64,000 nt of DNA from Candidatus Dojkabacteria bacterium. Lineage in GTDB: Bacteria; Patescibacteriota; Dojkabacteria; B142; WJKM01. The translations under genes were made by a program, and so were the position numbers. This document shows, one piece after another, positions 3,478 to 35,306 of the stretch (positions within the stretch are counted from its first letter, which is position 1; every line of letters begins with the position of its first letter). Location: assembly GCA_014729085.1 (NCBI GenBank), contig WJKM01000011.1, positions 170,852 to 234,851 on the forward strand, given 5' to 3'. A model generated the notes under the pieces. It was not told where the DNA came from. It saw only the letters and a program-made list of their open reading frames with translations, and ran no database searches.

Positions 3478-3630
3478 ATGGAACAAGAAAGATTTAGAGA
3501 TCACATGCCTTTTTTATTGATAAGTGCATTAGCTTTAGGAGGTCTAACAGCCTGTGGAAATGAGACAAATGTAGTCCCAGATCCTACCGAATCACCCATT
3601 CCTGATCCAGATCCTACAGCTACTGCTCTA
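3478..3630 (+). repeat. second copy of the duplicated 5' lipoprotein module (see 2218-2370)
   Basis: Same nucleotide string atggaacaagaaagatttagagat...cctgatccagatcctacagctact. Confidence 0.8.
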
Positions 3631-4482: not shown

Positions 4483-4592
4483 TCCCTATTGATAACTATT
4501 ATATTTTTAATCATGTTATATCTTATCTATTGAAAAATTAAAGAGAAGCCTGATATGATCACGACATACTTTATTATCTTATAATATTTAAA

Positions 4593-8168: not shown

Positions 8169-8313
8169 TTTGTTTCTTATAAGATATTGAAAACAAATTC
8201 CCAATTTAGATTTATATCCCCCCTTTAACCTTTACACATAAGACTTATCACAAACATTGACTAAAATTATATAGGTATATATAATTCATAATAATATATT
8301 AAAATTTTTTCTT

Positions 8314-10890: not shown

Positions 10891-12435
10891 TCACTCTCCA
10901 CCCCCAGCTGGGGGTAGTGGATCGTAATTGCTTGGTACAAAGCTTGATTTGGATTGAGGTGTCTTTTTATTTTGTTGAACCGTTTCTACAACTTCCTCTT
11001 TAGTCTCTTCTTCTTTTGATTTGGCCGTGTCCTTTTCTTCTTGCTCATCATCTTCTTTTGTGGTTATCTTCTCTTCAGTTTCTTTTTCTTCTTCTTTAAC
11101 TTTTGGTTCTATCATTTTGGTTACATATTTCATATCATCTTCGGTGACATCTTTTTCTTCATCGCTTTGTTGCTCTTTATCAGCTACAACTGTTTCGACC
11201 TGTTGAGTCTCTTTAATCGCTGTATCTTTTTCTACAACCTCAGCTTCTTCAGGCAACTCCCTATCCTTCGAGATAGCTGGAATCTTTTCCTTCTCAGATT
11301 TGATTACTTCTTTTTCTTGTTCAGTCTCCTTTTGTGTCTCTATTTCTCCTTCCGGCTCCATTTCCATTTTTTTAAAAAATTTTTCAAAAATAGCCCCTGC
11401 TCTTTGCTTCGACCAAAAATACACATAGTTCTTATCCCCAAGTCTATAAAATTCCTTAGTTAACTCCAACGCAGAATATTTATTGGATGAAACCTGCATA
11501 AATCCATGAATATTATCTTCCAACTTAACCATTACTACTGCAACATCGCATTCCTTGATCTTGGCAATTGGTATACGATCTTCATTGCTTAAGCTCCCTA
11601 CCACATCACTGGTAATATTTTCGTCGTCTACATATGCGAAACAGAAATTATCTTTTACTTTTAAGTTCTGGAAAACAGCGTTAAACCAGTAAACATGCTT
11701 TTTGGTCAATTTTTTATAAATTCTGCTATTTGCTGTATCTATATCTGCCTTGTCCTTATTGACAAGTAAATATAGGTTTTTTACTGTCTGTCTATTAGCG
11801 TTTATCTTTAAATTCTGGGTGTTAAAAAATATTCCAGTAAGTAAATGAGTTGCTTGTTCCTGACTTAGAGGAATATTTAACTGTCTCGAAAACATCTTGA
11901 CTAATTCAGATAACGAGCTGGAAGGAATAATATACTTTGAATCGGTGACAACACCAGAATCATAATAATGAACTAATTTTGTCTCGTCTGTTATTACTGA
12001 TTCTCCGAAGCTTTGTCTAAATTCATTTGAGTTTTCAAGCTGAGAAAACCCCAAAAGCAATATTTGGTCAAATTTAATCTTATCTCTTGAAAAGCTTATA
12101 GCCTGTTTGTTTAAATTTCCTGATTTGGTAGTTATAACCAACTTGAATTCATTTTCAGATTTTTGAATGTCAATATCTTCAATTTCCTTATCTGTTGGCA
12201 ACTTTGCGTAAAACCTTCTACTCTGGACCGAATTAACCATATTCAAACCTTCCGCAGGAAAATTCTTCTCAAACACCTCTTGGTATTTATCTAAGTTTGT
12301 TAAAATAGTTACATCTTTACCAACTTTATCCAATAATTGTGCTAAAACTATTGTGGAAGCTACTGAATCTGGATTTAATTGGTCAGGAGTAACTAAAAGT
12401 ATATTGTTGATATTTTTATCAATTATTTTATTCAT
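10891..12435 (-). CDS. degenerate DHH/DHHA1 (NrnA-like) phosphoesterase-family protein with a long E/K-rich low-complexity C-terminal tail
   Basis: N-terminal LLVTPDQLNPDSVASTIVLAQLLDKVGKDVTIL resembles DHH motifs I/II with the catalytic His substituted. ATHLLTGIFFNTQNL and ...WSKQRAGAIF resemble DHHA1. The last ~130 aa are a KEEEKETEEK-type charged tail. Confidence 0.5.
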   Translation of the reverse strand: MNKIIDKNINNILLVTPDQLNPDSVASTIVLAQLLDKVGKDVTILTNLDKYQEVFEKNFPAEGLNMVNSVQSRRFYAKLPTDKEIEDIDIQKSENEFKLVITTKSGNLNKQAISFSRDKIKFDQILLLGFSQLENSNEFRQSFGESVITDETKLVHYYDSGVVTDSKYIIPSSSLSELVKMFSRQLNIPLSQEQATHLLTGIFFNTQNLKINANRQTVKNLYLLVNKDKADIDTANSRIYKKLTKKHVYWFNAVFQNLKVKDNFCFAYVDDENITSDVVGSLSNEDRIPIAKIKECDVAVVMVKLEDNIHGFMQVSSNKYSALELTKEFYRLGDKNYVYFWSKQRAGAIFEKFFKKMEMEPEGEIETQKETEQEKEVIKSEKEKIPAISKDRELPEEAEVVEKDTAIKETQQVETVVADKEQQSDEEKDVTEDDMKYVTKMIEPKVKEEEKETEEKITTKEDDEQEEKDTAKSKEEETKEEVVETVQQNKKTPQSKSSFVPSNYDPLPPAGGGE

Positions 12436-12570
12436 AAATAATAATTGACTATAAGATTAAATTGAAGTACAATTATTATATCACAAAAAACCGTTATTTC
12501 AAATGAAAAGAACAATTCCTAGGGTTTATTTTTTTCAACTATAATGTATTAACTAATATTCTATAATAAG

Positions 12571-13203: not shown

Positions 13204-13339
13204 ACGGCTTGCTTAATTCAAATATTCCTTTTTGTAACCTCCCCTATCTAAATATATGAACGAATCAATTGTGACGGATTGAGACAGGTGGTAACATTAT
13301 TTAGTTAGATCTTAGGAAAGTGTCTCAGCTTGTCACTAA

Positions 13340-15156: not shown

Positions 15157-15226
15157 TATATCTATTGACAAAATTATTTATATAGTAGTACAATATTATA
15201 GGCTTAAACTATTATAAAATCTATAA

Positions 15227-24024: not shown

Positions 24025-24507
24025 TAATTTACGTCCATTTTTATAAAATCATCCTAATTTTCCACCCAAAAATAAACAGAAAACTGAAATTTCGTAATTT
24101 AGCCTATATAAAACTATTATTTGGGATAATCATTTTAATAAATTTCTATCAAATTTTTCTGTTGTTATCGGAAAAAAATTAAAGTAATCCCAGTATTTAC
24201 AGGGCAATCCCCCAAAGCCCTTGTTATTAAAGAATTCTCATATATAATAATATTCTAAAATTATATGTATTACGTGTTTCCATCAGTTTAAGATTCGTCC
24301 AATTTTCCGATTATATCGACAGTTGTTATAAGACAAGCACTTTAAGACCTGTTTGATATATCCCATATTAATAACTTTAACTATATGAAAACATGCAATG
24401 GTCTTGACATTTCAGAAGGATATATTTATTCTTAGCTTAAATCCAATTACTACTCAATCTTGTTAACTCAGGATGAGTAAATCCAAAAGAAAGGAGGTAA
24501 ACGTTCT

Positions 24508-24780
24508 ATGAACAAAGCAGATCTTGTAAACCAAATTGCAGCCGCAACTGGTCTAACAAAGAAAGACTCAGCTGCTGCATTGGAAGCTTTTATGGATGCA
24601 GTTCGTGATGCTCTAAGCTCAGGAAAGCGAGTCACCCTAACTGGATTTGGTACATACTCAACCGTTGACCGAAAGGCAAGAGATGGCCGAAACCCACAAA
24701 CAGGTGAAAAAATTCGAATTCCTGCAACAACTGTTCCTAAATTCAAGCCAGGTAAGGCTCTAAGAGAAGCAGTAAAATAG
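24508..24780 (+). CDS. hup: DNA-binding protein HU
   Basis: 90-aa HU/IHF family protein (MNKADLVNQIAA...GFGTYSTVDRKARDGRNPQTGEKIRIPATTVPKFKPGKALREAVK). Strong RBS aaaggagg 8 nt upstream. Codon usage is visibly GC-richer than its neighbours. Confidence 0.9.
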   Translation: MNKADLVNQIAAATGLTKKDSAAALEAFMDAVRDALSSGKRVTLTGFGTYSTVDRKARDGRNPQTGEKIRIPATTVPKFKPGKALREAVK

Positions 24781-24811
24781 TCAGGACATAAGCTTAAGTT
24801 TATGTCGACTT

Positions 24812-24841
24812 AAAACCCTGTATCGTACGGTACAGGGTTTT
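24812..24841. terminator. bidirectional rho-independent terminator between convergent hup and mazG-like genes
   Basis: aaaaccctgtatcgta/cggtacagggtttt: ~15-bp near-perfect palindrome flanked by an A-run and a T-run. Confidence 0.7.
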
Positions 24842-24901
24842 GCATAGAATTTATAGGGTAGGGGATTAAATATCTTTCATATATTTATATAATTTTGGTC
24901 T

Positions 24902-25213
24902 CTATCCATCATATACCTTTTCCAAAACTCCATTTCCGTTTTTTATATATATTCTCCTTCCGTTTTTTTCTACTTTATTTACAAGTTCTGTTTCCAGATC
25001 AATTCCTGCTATCTCTGAAATCCCGAGTAGGAATATCAATACATCAGCCAACTCTTCTCCAAAAGTATCCATTTTTTTCTCATAGGCTTCAAAAGCCTCT
25101 CCTACCTCTCCATATAATCTACTAAACTCAAGGGGGACATCTGTTAAGTTGAAACCTTTTTCAACCTTATTATCATAAACTTTTTTTTGAGTTTCTCTTA
25201 GTAAAGATTCCAT
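24902..25213 (-). CDS. MazG-like nucleotide pyrophosphohydrolase
   Basis: All-alpha MazG-type motifs EFSRLYGEVGEAFEAYEK and EELADVLIFLLGISEIAGIDLE; 103 aa. Confidence 0.6.
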   Translation of the reverse strand: MESLLRETQKKVYDNKVEKGFNLTDVPLEFSRLYGEVGEAFEAYEKKMDTFGEELADVLIFLLGISEIAGIDLETELVNKVEKNGRRIYIKNGNGVLEKVYDG

Positions 25214-25462
25214 TAAACCTGAAAATTCGACTCGTAGCTAATACAAGATAATAATCAATATGCACTATATAGAAATCTGTTGAAATTATATTTTCAAAAG
25301 TATTAGATTGCAACCGAAACCTTTTCTCCTCAATTAGGAATCTCCATTGAAAAGGGGAATGGTAATAAACTCACTGTACCAAACCGAGACGTTTTAATAT
25401 GATTAATTACTTACTCATAAACCTATTCCATCGAATGACAGAAATAATATATTTTCTCCCCC

Positions 25463-26791
25463 TTACCTTGGTTCGATTATATCTTTTCCCACAAATTCAC
25501 GGAGAACTTCTGGAACAGTAATACTTCCATCGGGATTTTGATAATTCTCCCAAATTGCAATAAGAATTCTGGGTGATGCTATTACTGTATTATTCAGAGC
25601 ATGAGCATAATACTTCTTTCCGTCTTTACCTTTTACTTTAATATTAAGTCTCCTTGCTTGCCAATCTCCAAGATTAGATGCACTGTGAGTTTCTCCGTAA
25701 CTATCACGTGATGGCATCCAGGTTTCTATATCATACATTTTATATTTTCCTGCACCCATGTCACCTGTACAAACTTGTATCACCCTATATGGTAACTCTA
25801 ATTTTTGGAGAAGCTCTTCTGAATAACCCAACATTTTTTTATGCCATTCTTCTGACACATCATATTTTCCATCACAAATTACTACCTGCTCAATTTTCAT
25901 AAATTCATGAATCCTATAAATACCTTTAGTATCTTTTCCATAACTTCCCACTTCACTTCTGTAACATTGAGAAAAGCCGGCATATTTCCTAGGAAGATCT
26001 TCTTCTTCAAAAACCTCGTCTCGAGAATAATTTAAAATACTTGGTTCTGCAGTCCCAATTAAATATTTTTTTTCTTTCCCTTCTACTTCGTCGGCTTCTT
26101 CAAAGTGTTTTAGACTGTCAACCATATAGATGTTCTCTTCGTCAAAAGGGAAATGCCCGCTTCCCCACAGTGCCTCATCTCTAACAATTGTAGGAGGCAC
26201 AAAGGTCTGAAATCCTTTGGATTGTATAAACTTTAATCCATACATCATAAGCCCCATATGCATTAAGACTGCTTCGTTCTTCAAATAATATCCTCTAAAC
26301 CCACTTGTTTGAACTCCTTTTTCCAAGTCTAATAGATTCAATGATTCTCCAAGTTCTATATGATCCTTAAATTTGAAATCAAATTTTTTTGGATCGCCAC
26401 CTTTTCCTGTTTCAGGAGACCACCTCCATCTTTCCACATTCTCCGAGTCGTCTTTGCCTACAGGTGTATCTTCAGAAACTATTTGAGGGGTTTTCCACAT
26501 TAAATTTTGATATTGTTCTTCAACAACAGCCATTTCTTCTTCAACTTCACCTAACTCTGCTTTGATTTTTCTACCTTTTACAATGAGCTCTTTAGGTGGT
26601 TTACCTTTAATTTTTTTTATTTCTTCAACATTTTCATTTCGCCGTTGTCTTATTTTTTCAACCTCCTTCAGTAAATCACTTCTTTTTTTATATATAGAAA
26701 TCAATAAATCAATGTCTAAATCTAGACCTTTATCTTTGACCAAATTTTTAAAGTAATCTGGTTGCTTTATTATTTTTTTTATATTCTGCAT
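25463..26791 (-). CDS. serS: seryl-tRNA synthetase
   Basis: N-terminal coiled-coil arm and a class II core (GFSQCYRSEVGSYGKDTKGIYRIHEF, ...NNTVIASPRILIAIWEN); 442 aa. Confidence 0.9.
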   Translation of the reverse strand: MQNIKKIIKQPDYFKNLVKDKGLDLDIDLLISIYKKRSDLLKEVEKIRQRRNENVEEIKKIKGKPPKELIVKGRKIKAELGEVEEEMAVVEEQYQNLMWKTPQIVSEDTPVGKDDSENVERWRWSPETGKGGDPKKFDFKFKDHIELGESLNLLDLEKGVQTSGFRGYYLKNEAVLMHMGLMMYGLKFIQSKGFQTFVPPTIVRDEALWGSGHFPFDEENIYMVDSLKHFEEADEVEGKEKKYLIGTAEPSILNYSRDEVFEEEDLPRKYAGFSQCYRSEVGSYGKDTKGIYRIHEFMKIEQVVICDGKYDVSEEWHKKMLGYSEELLQKLELPYRVIQVCTGDMGAGKYKMYDIETWMPSRDSYGETHSASNLGDWQARRLNIKVKGKDGKKYYAHALNNTVIASPRILIAIWENYQNPDGSITVPEVLREFVGKDIIEPR

Positions 26792-27202: not shown

Positions 27203-27967
27203 CTATGCCAAAATATTCAATAATATTTCGGTATTAGATTTAACCAGATTATAAAGAGATTCCTCTAAATTAAACCCTAAAGTCGGTAAGTGATTCTCTT
27301 CTGGAGTTGTTTTTTTAATCGATGGTATATGGTCAAACATTGGATTATATACTAATTCTTGTTTTGCATTTTTCCTTATACAGAAATAAGCAAGCCCCTT
27401 GGTTTTTAATTCTTTATAATCCAAAAGGTCGTAAGATTTATAGACTCTGGAAACTACAGCGCACTTGTCTCTTGTGTTGATAAATGTATAATAATATCCG
27501 GAAGGTATTGCAACTTTTTCACGAGGTTTAATTTCCATCATGACCCCTTCTTTCACCCTAGGTTTCCTACAACTTCCAATTCCAAAAGCGTTCTTCTGCA
27601 TAATTATTGTTGTAATTCCGTTTATACCCTCAACTATTGTTGCAAATTTCAACTGTTCATCCTCCTTGACATTAGGGGTGTAAAAAACATGCGATTTTAT
27701 AAACTCAATTCCTAAGAGTCCAGAAGGCAAAACTAAAATATCATATTTAAGGTCCTTGTCCTCTTCAACTTTTTCGTCAACAGAGATTGAATATTCTTCA
27801 TACACTTTTTCTGGATAAGAAATTGATTTATTAAGTAGGGTAGGGGACATGCTTGATAAGTTGATCGTCCTTTTCTGACAACAAATATTTTCTATAGGTA
27901 TTCTAACTTCATCCTCAAAATCATCATACTGGATAGGAAGATCGCATATATCATGGAGGCTTAGCAT
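27203..27967 (-). CDS. hypothetical protein (possibly cupin-like)
   Basis: 254-aa ORF with good coding appearance and no recognisable catalytic motifs. A beta-rich segment (VMMEIKPREKVAIPSGYYYTFINTRDKCAVV) is faintly cupin-like. Confidence 0.35.
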   Translation of the reverse strand: MLSLHDICDLPIQYDDFEDEVRIPIENICCQKRTINLSSMSPTLLNKSISYPEKVYEEYSISVDEKVEEDKDLKYDILVLPSGLLGIEFIKSHVFYTPNVKEDEQLKFATIVEGINGITTIIMQKNAFGIGSCRKPRVKEGVMMEIKPREKVAIPSGYYYTFINTRDKCAVVSRVYKSYDLLDYKELKTKGLAYFCIRKNAKQELVYNPMFDHIPSIKKTTPEENHLPTLGFNLEESLYNLVKSNTEILLNILA

Positions 27968-28177
27968 ATATTCTTTCTATTAATAATTAATTCTAAAAGA
28001 AGAATAATTTGGAATCTTTAATAATATAGACCCTTTAAGGAATTTCTGTCAATAAGCCTCTTTTATCTGGTATTAGGTTATCGATCCTGCTATCCACTAC
28101 CTATTAATACATTTAGGTAGGTAGATTTTATACAAATGCTACTTATACAATATTTGTTTATTTTCACATTATAATTT

Positions 28178-28436
28178 CAAGAGTGTTATAATAATGCAAG
28201 CAAGTGGGTAATATTCAAGACAATTACTCTTGAAAAAAAAATAAGCTGAAAGTTCCACAAAATTTATAATCCAAAATAAAACGCATACAAGTAAATAATT
28301 ATTTTGAGGAATTATTTGATTTATAAAAATGAAATAATTTAAAAAAGTAGGTGGTACCACGTAGTTTTATCTTAAAAACTCTCGTCCTTTAACCAATTTT
28401 TATCATCTTGGTTAAAAGAAGAGAGTTTTTAGTTTT
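28178..28436 (+). promoter_or_regulatory. T-box riboswitch-like leader of argS (stem I candidate, T-box sequence, terminator/antiterminator)
   Basis: aagtaggtggtaccacg at 28345-28361 resembles the T-box consensus AATTAGGGTGGTACCGCG, with a UGGU bulge complementary to the tRNA 3' end ACCA. It is followed directly by a 23-bp near-perfect hairpin (aaaaactctcgtcctttaaccaa / ttggttaaaagaagagagttttt, 28374-28430) plus a T-run. The hairpin's 5' strand overlaps the predicted antiterminator. A possible stem I is the caagagt...actcttg helix at 28178-28232, which contains an AGA codon. Confidence 0.5.
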
Positions 28437-28529
28437 ATATTCAGCCTTTTTCCGCATTTATTAAAGCGAAATTATGGTCAAATACTGCACTATTTTTATT
28501 TTAAGATATCTATATTAATATCAGAAACT

Positions 28530-30449
28530 ATGAAATCAAAGAAAATAAATAAAGCCAAAAATACAAAAAAACAGAAGTATATTTTCCCAGAAGGGTCTAT
28601 TCCTAAACAAATACAAAATGCTTTATCCGAAACAATTAATAAAGAATTCGACATGAAGATTGCAACAGACGAAATACATCTTGAAAGGCCTAATGAATCT
28701 GCCCACGGTGATTATGCTTCAACTATTGCATTGCAGTTATCAAAAAATTTAAATAAAAAGCCATTCGAAATAGCAAAAGTACTTCACGCAAAAATTCTAG
28801 ATTCTAATGCATTTTCTGAAGGTATGAGACTAATCACTGGTGATTCAATCTTTATCTCAAAAGACGGTATCAAAATTGCTGGGCCAGGCTTCATAAACTT
28901 TGAACTTTCCCAAAAATCATTGATAAAAAATCTTATTAAATTTTCCGACAATGATTTTTATCAACTCGATTTCTTTAAGGATGAAAAAATTATGGTTGAA
29001 TTTACAGACCCAAATCCTTTCAAAGAATTTCATATAGGTCATGCATACAGCAATACAGTAGGAGAATCAATTGCTCGAATCTTTGAAGCTTTGGGAGCTG
29101 AAGTGAAGAGAGGAAATTTTTTTGGCGATGTTGGAATGCATGTTGCAAAATCTTTGTGGGGTATAAGAAAAAAACTGGATGAGGAAGACATTGAATTTGA
29201 AAAGTTGGAGGAATATCCTCTGGACGAAAGAATAAAATTTTTAGGGGAAGCCTATGCATTAGGAGCAACAGCATTTAAAGTAAGTAAAGATTCACGTGAA
29301 GAGATAAAAGACCTTAACTATTTAGTGTACATTGTTGGTCAGGAATATATGAAGGAAAAATTCAATTGGGAACCCCAAGTAAATTATAAACAATATGTTG
29401 AATATGATGAGGATGATTTAAGATGGGTAAAAAAAGTCTATTTTCAAGGTAAAACTTGGAGTATGAATTATTTTGAAACAATATACGAAATCTTAGGGAC
29501 TGAATTTGACTATTATTATCCGGAAAGTATTGCAGGAGAATATGGACTTCCCATTGTTAAAGAATATCTAGAGAAAGGTGTTTTCACTAAAAGTGATAAC
29601 GCTGTTGTTTTTGAAGGGGAAAAATATGGACTGCATACGAGAGTATTTATTAATTCTCTTGGACTACCAACTTATGAAACAAAGGATATAGGCCTTCCAA
29701 TAACAAAGTTTAAAGATTTTAAATACGACAAATCTATAATTGTTACAGCAAATGAAATTGATGAGTACTACAAGGTTGTACATAAAGCACTCAGCCTAAT
29801 AAAACCAGAGTTGGCGGAAAAAACAAAGCATATAAGTCACGGCATGGTTAAACTTCCAGAAGGAAAAATGTCTTCCAGAACAGGAAAAATTATAACCGGA
29901 AAATGGTTAATAGAAGAAACCAAGAAAAGGGTAAGGGAAATAATTAAAGATACTAATAGAATAGAGAAGAGCGAAATGGCAGAAGTAGCTGAGATTCTTG
30001 CCGTGGGTGCAATCAAATATGCCTTTTTAAAACCTAAGATAGGAGGAGACATAGTTTTTGATTTTGGAGAATCAGTAAGTTTCGAAGGCAATAGCGGACC
30101 CTATCTTCAGTATACTTACGCAAGATGTAAATCCATTTTAAATAAGAATGATCAAGAAATTGATATAAATGAGAGTCAGAATTTCAATCCACATGAACTT
30201 TCAATTGTACGAAGTTTAGTACACTACCAGGAAACAGTATTAGAAGCTGGAAGATGTTATTCTCCTCATCTAATTGCTACCTTTTTGTATGAATTAGCAC
30301 AAAGGTTCAATAACTTCTATCAAAACTGTCCCATTCTCAATGAAAAGGAGACATTAAAAAATAAGAGGTTACTAATCACTCATGCTGTTGCTAATGTACT
30401 AAAACATGGATTAAATACACTTGGAATAAAAACTGTCGAAAGCATGTAA
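28530..30449 (+). CDS. argS: arginyl-tRNA synthetase
   Basis: Class I HIGH motif (FHIGHAYS), a degenerate KMSKS motif (KMSSRTGK), and a C-terminal DALR-type anticodon-binding domain; 639 aa. Confidence 0.9.
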   Translation: MKSKKINKAKNTKKQKYIFPEGSIPKQIQNALSETINKEFDMKIATDEIHLERPNESAHGDYASTIALQLSKNLNKKPFEIAKVLHAKILDSNAFSEGMRLITGDSIFISKDGIKIAGPGFINFELSQKSLIKNLIKFSDNDFYQLDFFKDEKIMVEFTDPNPFKEFHIGHAYSNTVGESIARIFEALGAEVKRGNFFGDVGMHVAKSLWGIRKKLDEEDIEFEKLEEYPLDERIKFLGEAYALGATAFKVSKDSREEIKDLNYLVYIVGQEYMKEKFNWEPQVNYKQYVEYDEDDLRWVKKVYFQGKTWSMNYFETIYEILGTEFDYYYPESIAGEYGLPIVKEYLEKGVFTKSDNAVVFEGEKYGLHTRVFINSLGLPTYETKDIGLPITKFKDFKYDKSIIVTANEIDEYYKVVHKALSLIKPELAEKTKHISHGMVKLPEGKMSSRTGKIITGKWLIEETKKRVREIIKDTNRIEKSEMAEVAEILAVGAIKYAFLKPKIGGDIVFDFGESVSFEGNSGPYLQYTYARCKSILNKNDQEIDINESQNFNPHELSIVRSLVHYQETVLEAGRCYSPHLIATFLYELAQRFNNFYQNCPILNEKETLKNKRLLITHAVANVLKHGLNTLGIKTVESM

Positions 30450-30564
30450 TCAATTACTAACATAGCTTTGATCTCCACCTAGACTTGCTTGACATATCTA
30501 TATATGGAAGATATAATCCCTAACAACATAACCCATAATTTTAACTTTTTTTAAAATTTAGTTC

Positions 30565-35199: not shown

Positions 35200-35306
35200 A
35201 ACCCTTATATTATATAGTAAGTTATTGTGCTGTTAAGGTAAAATTTAGTGCTATTTTACAAAATAATATGTTTTGTTTGAATTATGTATAATATCATTTT
35301 TATTAT

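Follow-up and report, generated by a model that had tools for sequence, protein, structure and literature searches.

This study concerns the region upstream of argS, the gene for arginine--tRNA ligase (ArgRS), in a 64,000-nt stretch of a Candidatus Dojkabacteria bacterium genome (contig WJKM01000011.1 of assembly GCA_014729085.1), referred to here as the window. Judged by its sequence, this region contains a genuine T-box discriminator domain ahead of argS in a genome of the Candidate Phyla Radiation (CPR), and the leader as a whole is probably a tRNA-Arg-sensing attenuator with a non-canonical decoding domain. A T-box-attenuated argS leader responding to uncharged tRNA, presumably tRNA-Arg, is the best explanation overall, and we consider it likely, with appreciable room for doubt. 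We infer the binding of tRNA, the specificity for arginine and an anticodon-reading loop, for which CGC at 28282-84 and AGA at 28218-20 are the candidates. The features on which the argument is built are the following:

28163..28192, forward strand: probable argS promoter, with the -35 box TTCACA at 28163-68, an 18-nt spacer and the extended -10 box TGtTATAAT at 28184-92 (11/12 consensus positions plus the TG).
28199..28529, forward strand: putative argS leader RNA of about 330 nt, its start placed at about 28199 from the position of the promoter.
28309..28340, forward strand: stem III hairpin, with GAGG on its 5' side and UAAAAAA on its 3' side (minimum free energy pairs and local alignment to the Rfam T-box model RF00230).
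28345..28361, forward strand: T-box sequence AAGTAGGTGGTACCACG, in RNA AAGUAGGUGGUACCACG (direct reading, Rfam alignment and the covariance model R2 described below).
28349..28388, forward strand: antiterminator, composed of helix A1 (28349-51/28386-88), a bulge (28352-58), helix A2 (28359-61/28383-85) and an inner helix (28363-68/28375-80) (constrained fold).
28374..28441, forward strand: intrinsic terminator with the stem 28374-96/28408-30, an 11-nt loop and the U-rich tail UUUUUAGUUUUAUAUU (folding).
28530..30449, forward strand: argS, coding for 639 amino acids (aa), the proposed regulated gene (open reading frame and protein match).

An earlier note, made from the letters of the window without database searches, had placed a T-box-like sequence about 170 nt before argS, and the element is indeed present at 28345-28361, on the argS strand and with its core 169 nt from the start codon. 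The core contains the sole exact copy of GGTGGNACC in the window on either strand. Compared with the Rfam consensus AAaUaGGGUGGUACCGCG, the T-box sequence matches at 14 of 18 positions, every bulge position being identical, and no invariant position of the discriminator core is altered. The 7-nt bulge UGGUACC (28352-58) includes UGGU, which is complementary to the tRNA 3' end ACCA. Directly 5' of the T-box sequence lies the stem III hairpin with its purine-rich flanks, the match to RRRNG being approximate. Two short helices flank the bulge, namely A1, in which AGG (28349-51) pairs with CCU (28386-88) and which continues with a G-U pair beyond a U-U mismatch, and A2, in which ACG (28359-61) pairs with CGU (28383-85). 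The antiterminator that had been suspected thus exists in a fuller form than claimed, with both helices in place, and its constrained fold has an energy of -4.8 kcal/mol.

The near-perfect 23-bp terminator hairpin with a T-tract described in the same note was also recovered, since 21 of the 23 positions between 28374 and 28430 are paired at -21.2 kcal/mol and the stem is followed by AGUUUUAUAUU. Its two mismatches, G28384/A28420 and C28387/A28417, hit bases that are paired in the antiterminator. Because CGUCCU (28383-88), which provides the 3' strands of A1 and A2, lies inside the 5' arm of the terminator, the two structures are mutually exclusive, and the terminator is by far the stabler one. 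Both energies fall within the ranges given for the 20,342 transcriptional T-boxes of TBDB, which are -19.5±7.9 kcal/mol for terminators and -7.4±4.2 kcal/mol for antiterminators (PMC7778990 supplement). No second copy of the terminator hairpin occurs in the window, and a repeat or mobile element was rejected on this ground. A second T-box in the window was likewise rejected, as the one-mismatch site at 13287 is not T-box-like and nothing of the kind was found upstream of serS.

The position of the promoter indicates a long leader. The window has ten strong sigma-70-like sites (at least 11/12 consensus matches, or 10/12 where an extended -10 TG is present), nine of them in intergenic DNA, which makes up 14% of the window. 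Eight of these nine are located 10-56 nt before the adjacent start codon (2161-2189, 4530-4559, 8257-8285, 12475-12502 on the reverse strand, 15165-15194, 28023-28052 on the reverse strand, 30489-30517 and 35209-35236 on the reverse strand), while the ninth, at 28163-28192, is 338 nt away from argS. Between 28192 and 28530 no promoter of like strength was found, the sole other site being a 9/12 match at 28412-41. The T-box element stands between promoter and argS start, on the same strand, and an RNA that starts at about 28199 and holds a terminator in a leader of some 330 nt would bear the signature of attenuation control. As a more general observation, this Dojkabacteria genome appears to rely on promoters of the E. 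coli type and on very short 5' untranslated regions.

The discriminator domain was also assessed with covariance models. At the gathering threshold, RF00230 gave no match in the whole window. In E-value mode, model positions 164-216 align to 28315-28389, covering stem III, AAaUaGGGUGGUACCGCG against AAAGUAGGUGGUACCACG, A2 and A1, and a G-C pair of the A1 consensus is replaced by A-U through compensating G-to-A and C-to-U changes on both strands. The E-value of 1.3 spans 4227 families and corresponds to about 3e-4 for one family named beforehand over the 301 nt searched. The canonical T-box L120, used for calibration, reaches 110.8 bits with the same model. A discriminator-only model, R2, was then constructed from five other T-boxes (the two of locus L014, L024, L114 and L120, the last two from IMG/VR) with the window excluded; it was bootstrapped via a trimmed-loop alignment and rebuilt from real sequences. 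Its best match in the window on either strand is the full-length hit at 28340-28394 on the forward strand with 19.7 bits (E about 0.008), the next-best match reaching 12.0 bits. In 355 kb of CPR argS loci its maximum, training T-boxes aside, is 13.1 bits.

Furthermore, a descriptor of the architecture (TGGNACC with A1/A2 pairing of 3+3 bp, plus an overlapping hairpin and a U tract) was applied to both strands of 873 kb, i.e., 1.75 Mb of strand sequence. It returned the window element, three leaders from the R2 training set (L014b, L024 and L114) and one probable false positive; as for its sensitivity, L014a just failed the U-tract cut-off and L120 was not detected. It is this combined architecture that gives the window element its significance, and not the 14-mer TAGGTGGTACCACG by itself, which is not diagnostic: only 2 of 42 IMG/VR contigs containing it are T-box-like, and most of the other occurrences lie in open reading frames. 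The 14-mer search of IMG/VR yielded no homologous leader, and BLAST of the leader against plasmids gave AT-rich noise only. As a separate observation, the IMG/VR contig L114 (38% GC) carries at 10989-11060 a T-box-like discriminator with a terminator (AUUAGGUGGUACCACGG...CGUCCUAAUCUC...UUUUUU) that is below the RF00230 gathering score.

The host had been suspected to be CPR-like, and this was borne out by the argS product of the window, which is 100% identical to MBD3362921.1, an arginine--tRNA ligase of Candidatus Dojkabacteria bacterium (CPR) encoded on a contig of 301,743 bp. The lineage is sparsely sampled, the best ArgRS relative being 55% identical. A scan of genome contigs returned ArgRS relatives of at most 34% identity, and a metagenome scan added 80 further CPR-type argS loci, none above 53% identity. 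Two of these 80 more distant loci, L014 and L024, have T-box leaders. L014 (CXWL01006631.1) has two T-boxes, one ahead of argS and one ahead of the gene that follows it, and in L024 the T-box precedes a two-gene operon consisting of an open reading frame of 171-179 aa without a Pfam match and argS. The ArgRS of L024 is OGV91977.1 of a Microgenomates group bacterium, a metagenome-assembled genome (MAG) from RIFCSP, and a second MAG (MHDF01000008.1, locus L130) has the identical leader, its positions 1140-1395 corresponding to 397-640 of L024. The three CPR leaders align to RF00230 end-to-end with 35.9, 29.9 and 24.1 bits (E 3.6e-5 to 0.04), the middle of stem I being deleted to 6-22 nt as opposed to 74-82 nt. 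Both CPR argS leaders present GUCGCGA in a small hairpin loop and also possess an F-box-like CCCGUUA or CCCGUCA, stem III, the T-box sequence and a strong terminator. On the evidence of these leaders' sequences, T-boxes exist in CPR bacteria and regulate argS there, and the Rfam gathering score of 93 is too strict for CPR T-boxes.

Some further observations on these loci are of interest in their own right. The second T-box-like leader of L014 (3345-3530, with the terminator extending to about 3570) lies directly downstream of argS and scores 35.9 bits on RF00230 (E 3.6e-5). The next open reading frame starts at 3600, exceeds 399 aa and has no Pfam match, and its gene may be arginine- or alanine-related, as the short stem I loop has CCGCAG. 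In the Microgenomates leader of L024 and L130, an ultrashort stem I (loop GUCGCGA) occurs together with an intrinsic terminator; reviews tie a truncated stem I mainly to the translational T-boxes of Actinobacteria. Many CPR ArgRS homologues of 856-929 aa (P0010, P0011, P0018, P0021, P0022, P0028, P0032, P0048, P0092 and others) carry an N-terminal PF03483 (B3_4) domain. This domain normally belongs to the PheRS beta subunit.

In contrast to the discriminator, the decoding (5') domain of the window leader matches none of the described stem I/stem II architectures. Two hairpins come into consideration:

28201..28234, forward strand: 5' hairpin region with two near-isoenergetic folds, H1 and H2; candidate short stem I (suboptimal folding).
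28272..28306, forward strand: 8-bp A-U hairpin (28272-79/28299-306) whose purine-rich loop has 19 nt; candidate for the alternative specifier or for an element like stem II (minimum free energy folds).

A stem-I-like helix containing an AGA triplet had been proposed at 28178-28232. The helix does fold in silico (28175-84/28226-35), yet its role as stem I was not upheld. A long stem I of the canonical kind at 28175-28235 was discarded for two reasons, the location of its 5' strand in the spacer of the promoter and the lack of the defining motifs; the strand 28175-84 is probably not transcribed, being placed between the -35 box at 28163-68 and the -10 box at 28187-92. The AGA at 28218-20 also fared poorly, since the next base is C and not the usual purine and since it is predicted to be paired, with an unpaired probability of 0.01-0.09 in the ensemble of the leader segment 28199-28345. 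In H1 (28214-20/28228-34, loop CAAUUAC, -5.3 kcal/mol) it is within the stem, whereas H2 (28201-04 and 28207-12 with 28223-32, -4.7 kcal/mol) exposes it in the 10-nt loop AUUCAAGACA.

Three Arg triplets occur in 28199-28345, namely AGA at 28218, CGC at 28282 and AGG at 28307, the last one abutting stem III. The CGC at 28282-84 is preceded by AAAA, followed by A and located in the loop of the 28272-306 hairpin with an unpaired probability of 0.65-0.83, and AAAACGCA resembles the Rfam specifier-loop consensus GAAaNNNA. Among the Arg specifiers in TBDB, CGC is the commonest (0.52) and AGA accounts for 0.24, and CGC is also the codon shown in the CPR argS T-boxes. In the Arg codon usage of the window, CGC is the rarest (3.2%) and AGA contributes 57%. 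T-boxes reportedly prefer rare NNC codons, and the rarity of CGC agrees with this. The chance of finding a CGC-like motif in the right place is about 10%, as estimated from base composition. On balance, we would assign somewhat less than half of our confidence to CGC as the specifier, a little under a third to AGA and the remaining quarter to neither.

With regard to the tRNA, the earlier note had stated that the UGGU bulge matches a tRNA-Arg with A73. The bulge part of this statement stands, and A73, which can pair with the last U of UGGU, is seen in tRNA-Arg genes of CPR relatives; the window contains no tRNA genes. In four CPR loci, tRNA-Arg(GCG) and tRNA-Arg(UCG) genes are located directly upstream of argS, both with A73. 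These pairs, with the anticodon loops UUGCGGA and CUUCGGA, form a recurrent tRNA-Arg/argS neighbourhood (L035 1298-1448, L043 1198-1437, L045 1275-1426 and L047 1249-1429).

Taken as a mechanism, transcription of argS would begin at the promoter at 28163-28192, which is close to consensus, and run through an unusually long leader of some 330 nt, whose 3' half is the discriminator domain (stem III, helices A1 and A2 and the T-box sequence carrying the UGGUACC bulge). Left to itself, the RNA would fold into the stable terminator (28374-28430 and the U tract), and transcription would end about 100 nt before argS. When uncharged tRNA, presumably tRNA-Arg, accumulates, its free 3' ACCA could pair with UGGU at 28352-55 and stabilise the weak antiterminator, which would keep CGUCCU (28383-88) from the 5' arm of the terminator and allow RNA polymerase to read through into argS.

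Several observations weigh against such a tRNA-responsive argS leader. RF00230 scores it at 12.5 bits, far under the gathering score, and aligns the 3' domain alone, nothing 5' of stem III (model position 164) being covered; the low score as such is uninformative here, since unmistakable CPR T-boxes score only 24-36 bits. The motifs of a long stem I in the Rfam consensus, taken via L120, are CgaUGA...GGAG for the K-turn, AaaAGUA/GAAaNNNA for the specifier loop, AGAGA and GgUUGGUGaaA, and by-eye comparison with them revealed no recognisable K-turn, specifier-loop S-turn, AG bulge or distal loop in the leader. Neither an F-box nor a IIA/B pseudoknot was recognised in it, a CCGUUA-like F-box being absent as 28236-28345 contains a single CG, and in sequence its 5' domain is no closer to the CPR T-boxes than shuffled controls are. 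A stem I formed over a long range around AAAACGCA, closing at 28200/28292 and placing CGC in a canonical specifier loop, was discarded on energy, with +4.5 kcal/mol as opposed to -11.5 kcal/mol for the minimum free energy fold. Helix A1 consists of three Watson-Crick pairs only, and UGGU fits any A73 tRNA, a common class, rather than tRNA-Arg alone. Finally, the expectation that relatives would share the element failed in the three closest ones (L005-L007, 51-55% ArgRS identity), in which argS follows the preceding gene at 2-38 nt and has no leader.

How much of the T-box is functional can be seen in two ways. It could be a functional T-box of a new architecture, in which a canonical discriminator is combined with a minimal decoding domain devoid of the K-turn, the tRNA-elbow platform and the IIA/B pseudoknot and the specifier CGC-A (28282-85) is presented in the loop of a simple A-U hairpin; we put this forward tentatively, as one possibility with perhaps a modest claim. 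The serious rival to the main reading, which we hold to be slightly less probable still, is that the T-box is a relic or has been simplified, its decoding domain having eroded in an AT-rich, reduced genome; it would then act as a constitutive attenuator or sense any uncharged A73 tRNA without specificity for arginine. Such an erosion would agree with a canonical 3' domain that has nothing canonical 5' of stem III, with the AT-rich leader region (25% GC) and with closest relatives that lost, or never had, the leader. However, a strong terminator without relief before an essential single-copy gene for an aminoacyl-tRNA synthetase (aaRS) would be costly, and the discriminator core has been left intact at all invariant positions, with two exposed or exposable Arg codons in hairpin loops upstream of it. 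Moreover, according to published reviews, the stem I and stem II domains vary and can be exchanged (PMC7583486).

Readings without any T-box fare considerably worse. A chance resemblance would consist of an ordinary terminator or attenuator, e.g., one belonging to a small RNA that is not annotated and begins at about 28199, beside a T-box-like 17-mer, with argS transcribed from a weak downstream promoter; the 9/12 promoter-like site at 28412-41, the low Rfam score and the limited diagnostic value of the 14-mer would all permit this. We nevertheless regard it as improbable, as the combined architecture gave a single probable false positive in the 1.75 Mb, no R2 background exceeds 13.1 bits compared with the 19.7 bits obtained here, and the element stands, on the correct strand, before one of just two aaRS genes in the window. 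Even less credible is another type of attenuation, in which an Arg-codon-rich leader peptide or a leader-bound protein (ArgRS or another) would be in control. Any attenuation mechanism would suit a long leader that holds a terminator, but no short open reading frame with a run of Arg codons lies upstream of or across the terminator, and a leader peptide was rejected on this ground: those upstream of its 3' arm hold 0-1 Arg, and the one at 28408-64, which begins within the hairpin, holds three. No protein-binding repeat was seen either, and the intact T-box core would be left unexplained.

The surroundings of argS complete the description of the locus. The GC content is 34% in the window and 25% in the 562-nt intergenic region upstream of argS (27968-28529), beyond which a cupin-type GPI-like gene (27203-27967) and serS (25463-26791) lie on the opposite strand. 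Downstream, the order argS ... transglutaminase-like (reverse strand) ... UvrD is also kept in relatives. About 23 aa rich in Lys (MKSKKINKAKNTKKQKYIFPEGS; 28530-28600) extend the N-terminus of the window's ArgRS and are absent from relatives, and alignments of homologues start at residues 20-44. Between the divergent promoters of the GPI-like gene and argS, a 7-bp G+C-containing hairpin (CUACCUA/UAGGUAG) is located at 28097-28124, its 3' arm forming part of a UAGG tandem followed by AUUUUAU. An apparent 1.4-kb gap at 24025-25462 contains small genes, for an HU-like DNA-binding protein (24508-24780, forward strand) and a MazG-like open reading frame (24902-25213, reverse strand), and showed no unusual feature.

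T-boxes are a common means of control in Gram-positive bacteria. They are regarded as a hallmark of Firmicutes with outposts in Actinobacteria, Chloroflexi and Deinococcus-Thermus and occasional horizontal transfer elsewhere (PMC7778990 supplement). In a partial literature collection, no work linking T-boxes to CPR, Patescibacteria or their subgroups was found, which is not proof of novelty. The element described here is a T-box-type leader in a phylum for which no earlier report was found, and it lies below the threshold of the curated model; as the CPR examples found here score far under the Rfam threshold, they would probably escape threshold-based searches. If functional, the leader would let ultrasmall, amino-acid-auxotrophic bacteria directly monitor tRNA charging, and it would be among the few concrete cis-regulatory mechanisms known in CPR. 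It would also supply a naturally occurring RNA switch for genetic tools of the kind wanted in the field (PMC11665869) and a data point on the minimum of stem I and stem II that a T-box needs. Should the new architecture prove true, then together with the Microgenomates T-boxes, which combine an ultrashort stem I with a terminator, it would show that T-boxes are native to CPR/Patescibacteria and missed by current family models, and the inferred origin of the mechanism would move to the common ancestor of the CPR and Gram-positive (Terrabacteria) lineages.

Among known systems, the class I transcriptional T-boxes of Firmicutes (RF00230; B. subtilis tyrS and glyQS; argS in TBDB) resemble the window leader in their position upstream of an aaRS gene, in stem III, in the 7-nt UGGNACC bulge between A1 and A2 and in a stabler overlapping terminator with a U tract, the energies being in the TBDB range. 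The window leader differs from them in having no recognisable long stem I, F-box or stem IIA/B, in its score of 12.5 bits against 93 and in its CPR host. The discriminator core is essentially identical across T-boxes, stems I and II being variable modules (PMC7583486). From CGC at 28282-84 to the bulge there are 70 nt with stem III alone in between. This resembles the spacing of stem I, linker and stem III in T-boxes of the glyQS type, which have no stem II. However, glyQS depends on a long stem I that bears an interdigitated T-loop platform, and the equivalent fold is unfavourable in the window (+4.5 kcal/mol).

The ultrashort stem I T-boxes of actinobacterial ileS (Nocardia farcinica, Mycobacterium tuberculosis; PMC7583486) are comparable in the distance from transcription start to bulge, about 150 nt in the window, and, if H2 is real, in a specifier carried by a small hairpin of the 5' region, some 20 nt from the start of the RNA. 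They act on translation via a sequestrator and need both an S-turn in stem II and the IIA/B pseudoknot, whereas the window leader has a terminator and no detectable pseudoknot or F-box. The CPR argS leaders of L024/L130 and L014 differ from that of the window in aligning end-to-end to RF00230 and in showing an ultrashort stem I together with stem II and an F-box-like sequence, where the window aligns by its 3' domain only; no similarity is shared in the 5' part, and their ArgRS are 46-47% identical to that of the window. They have in common with it the same gene, the same superphylum, the logic of discriminator and terminator, a sub-threshold Rfam score and an Arg codon in a hairpin loop, within GUCGCGA in those leaders and as the candidate CGC or AGA in the window.

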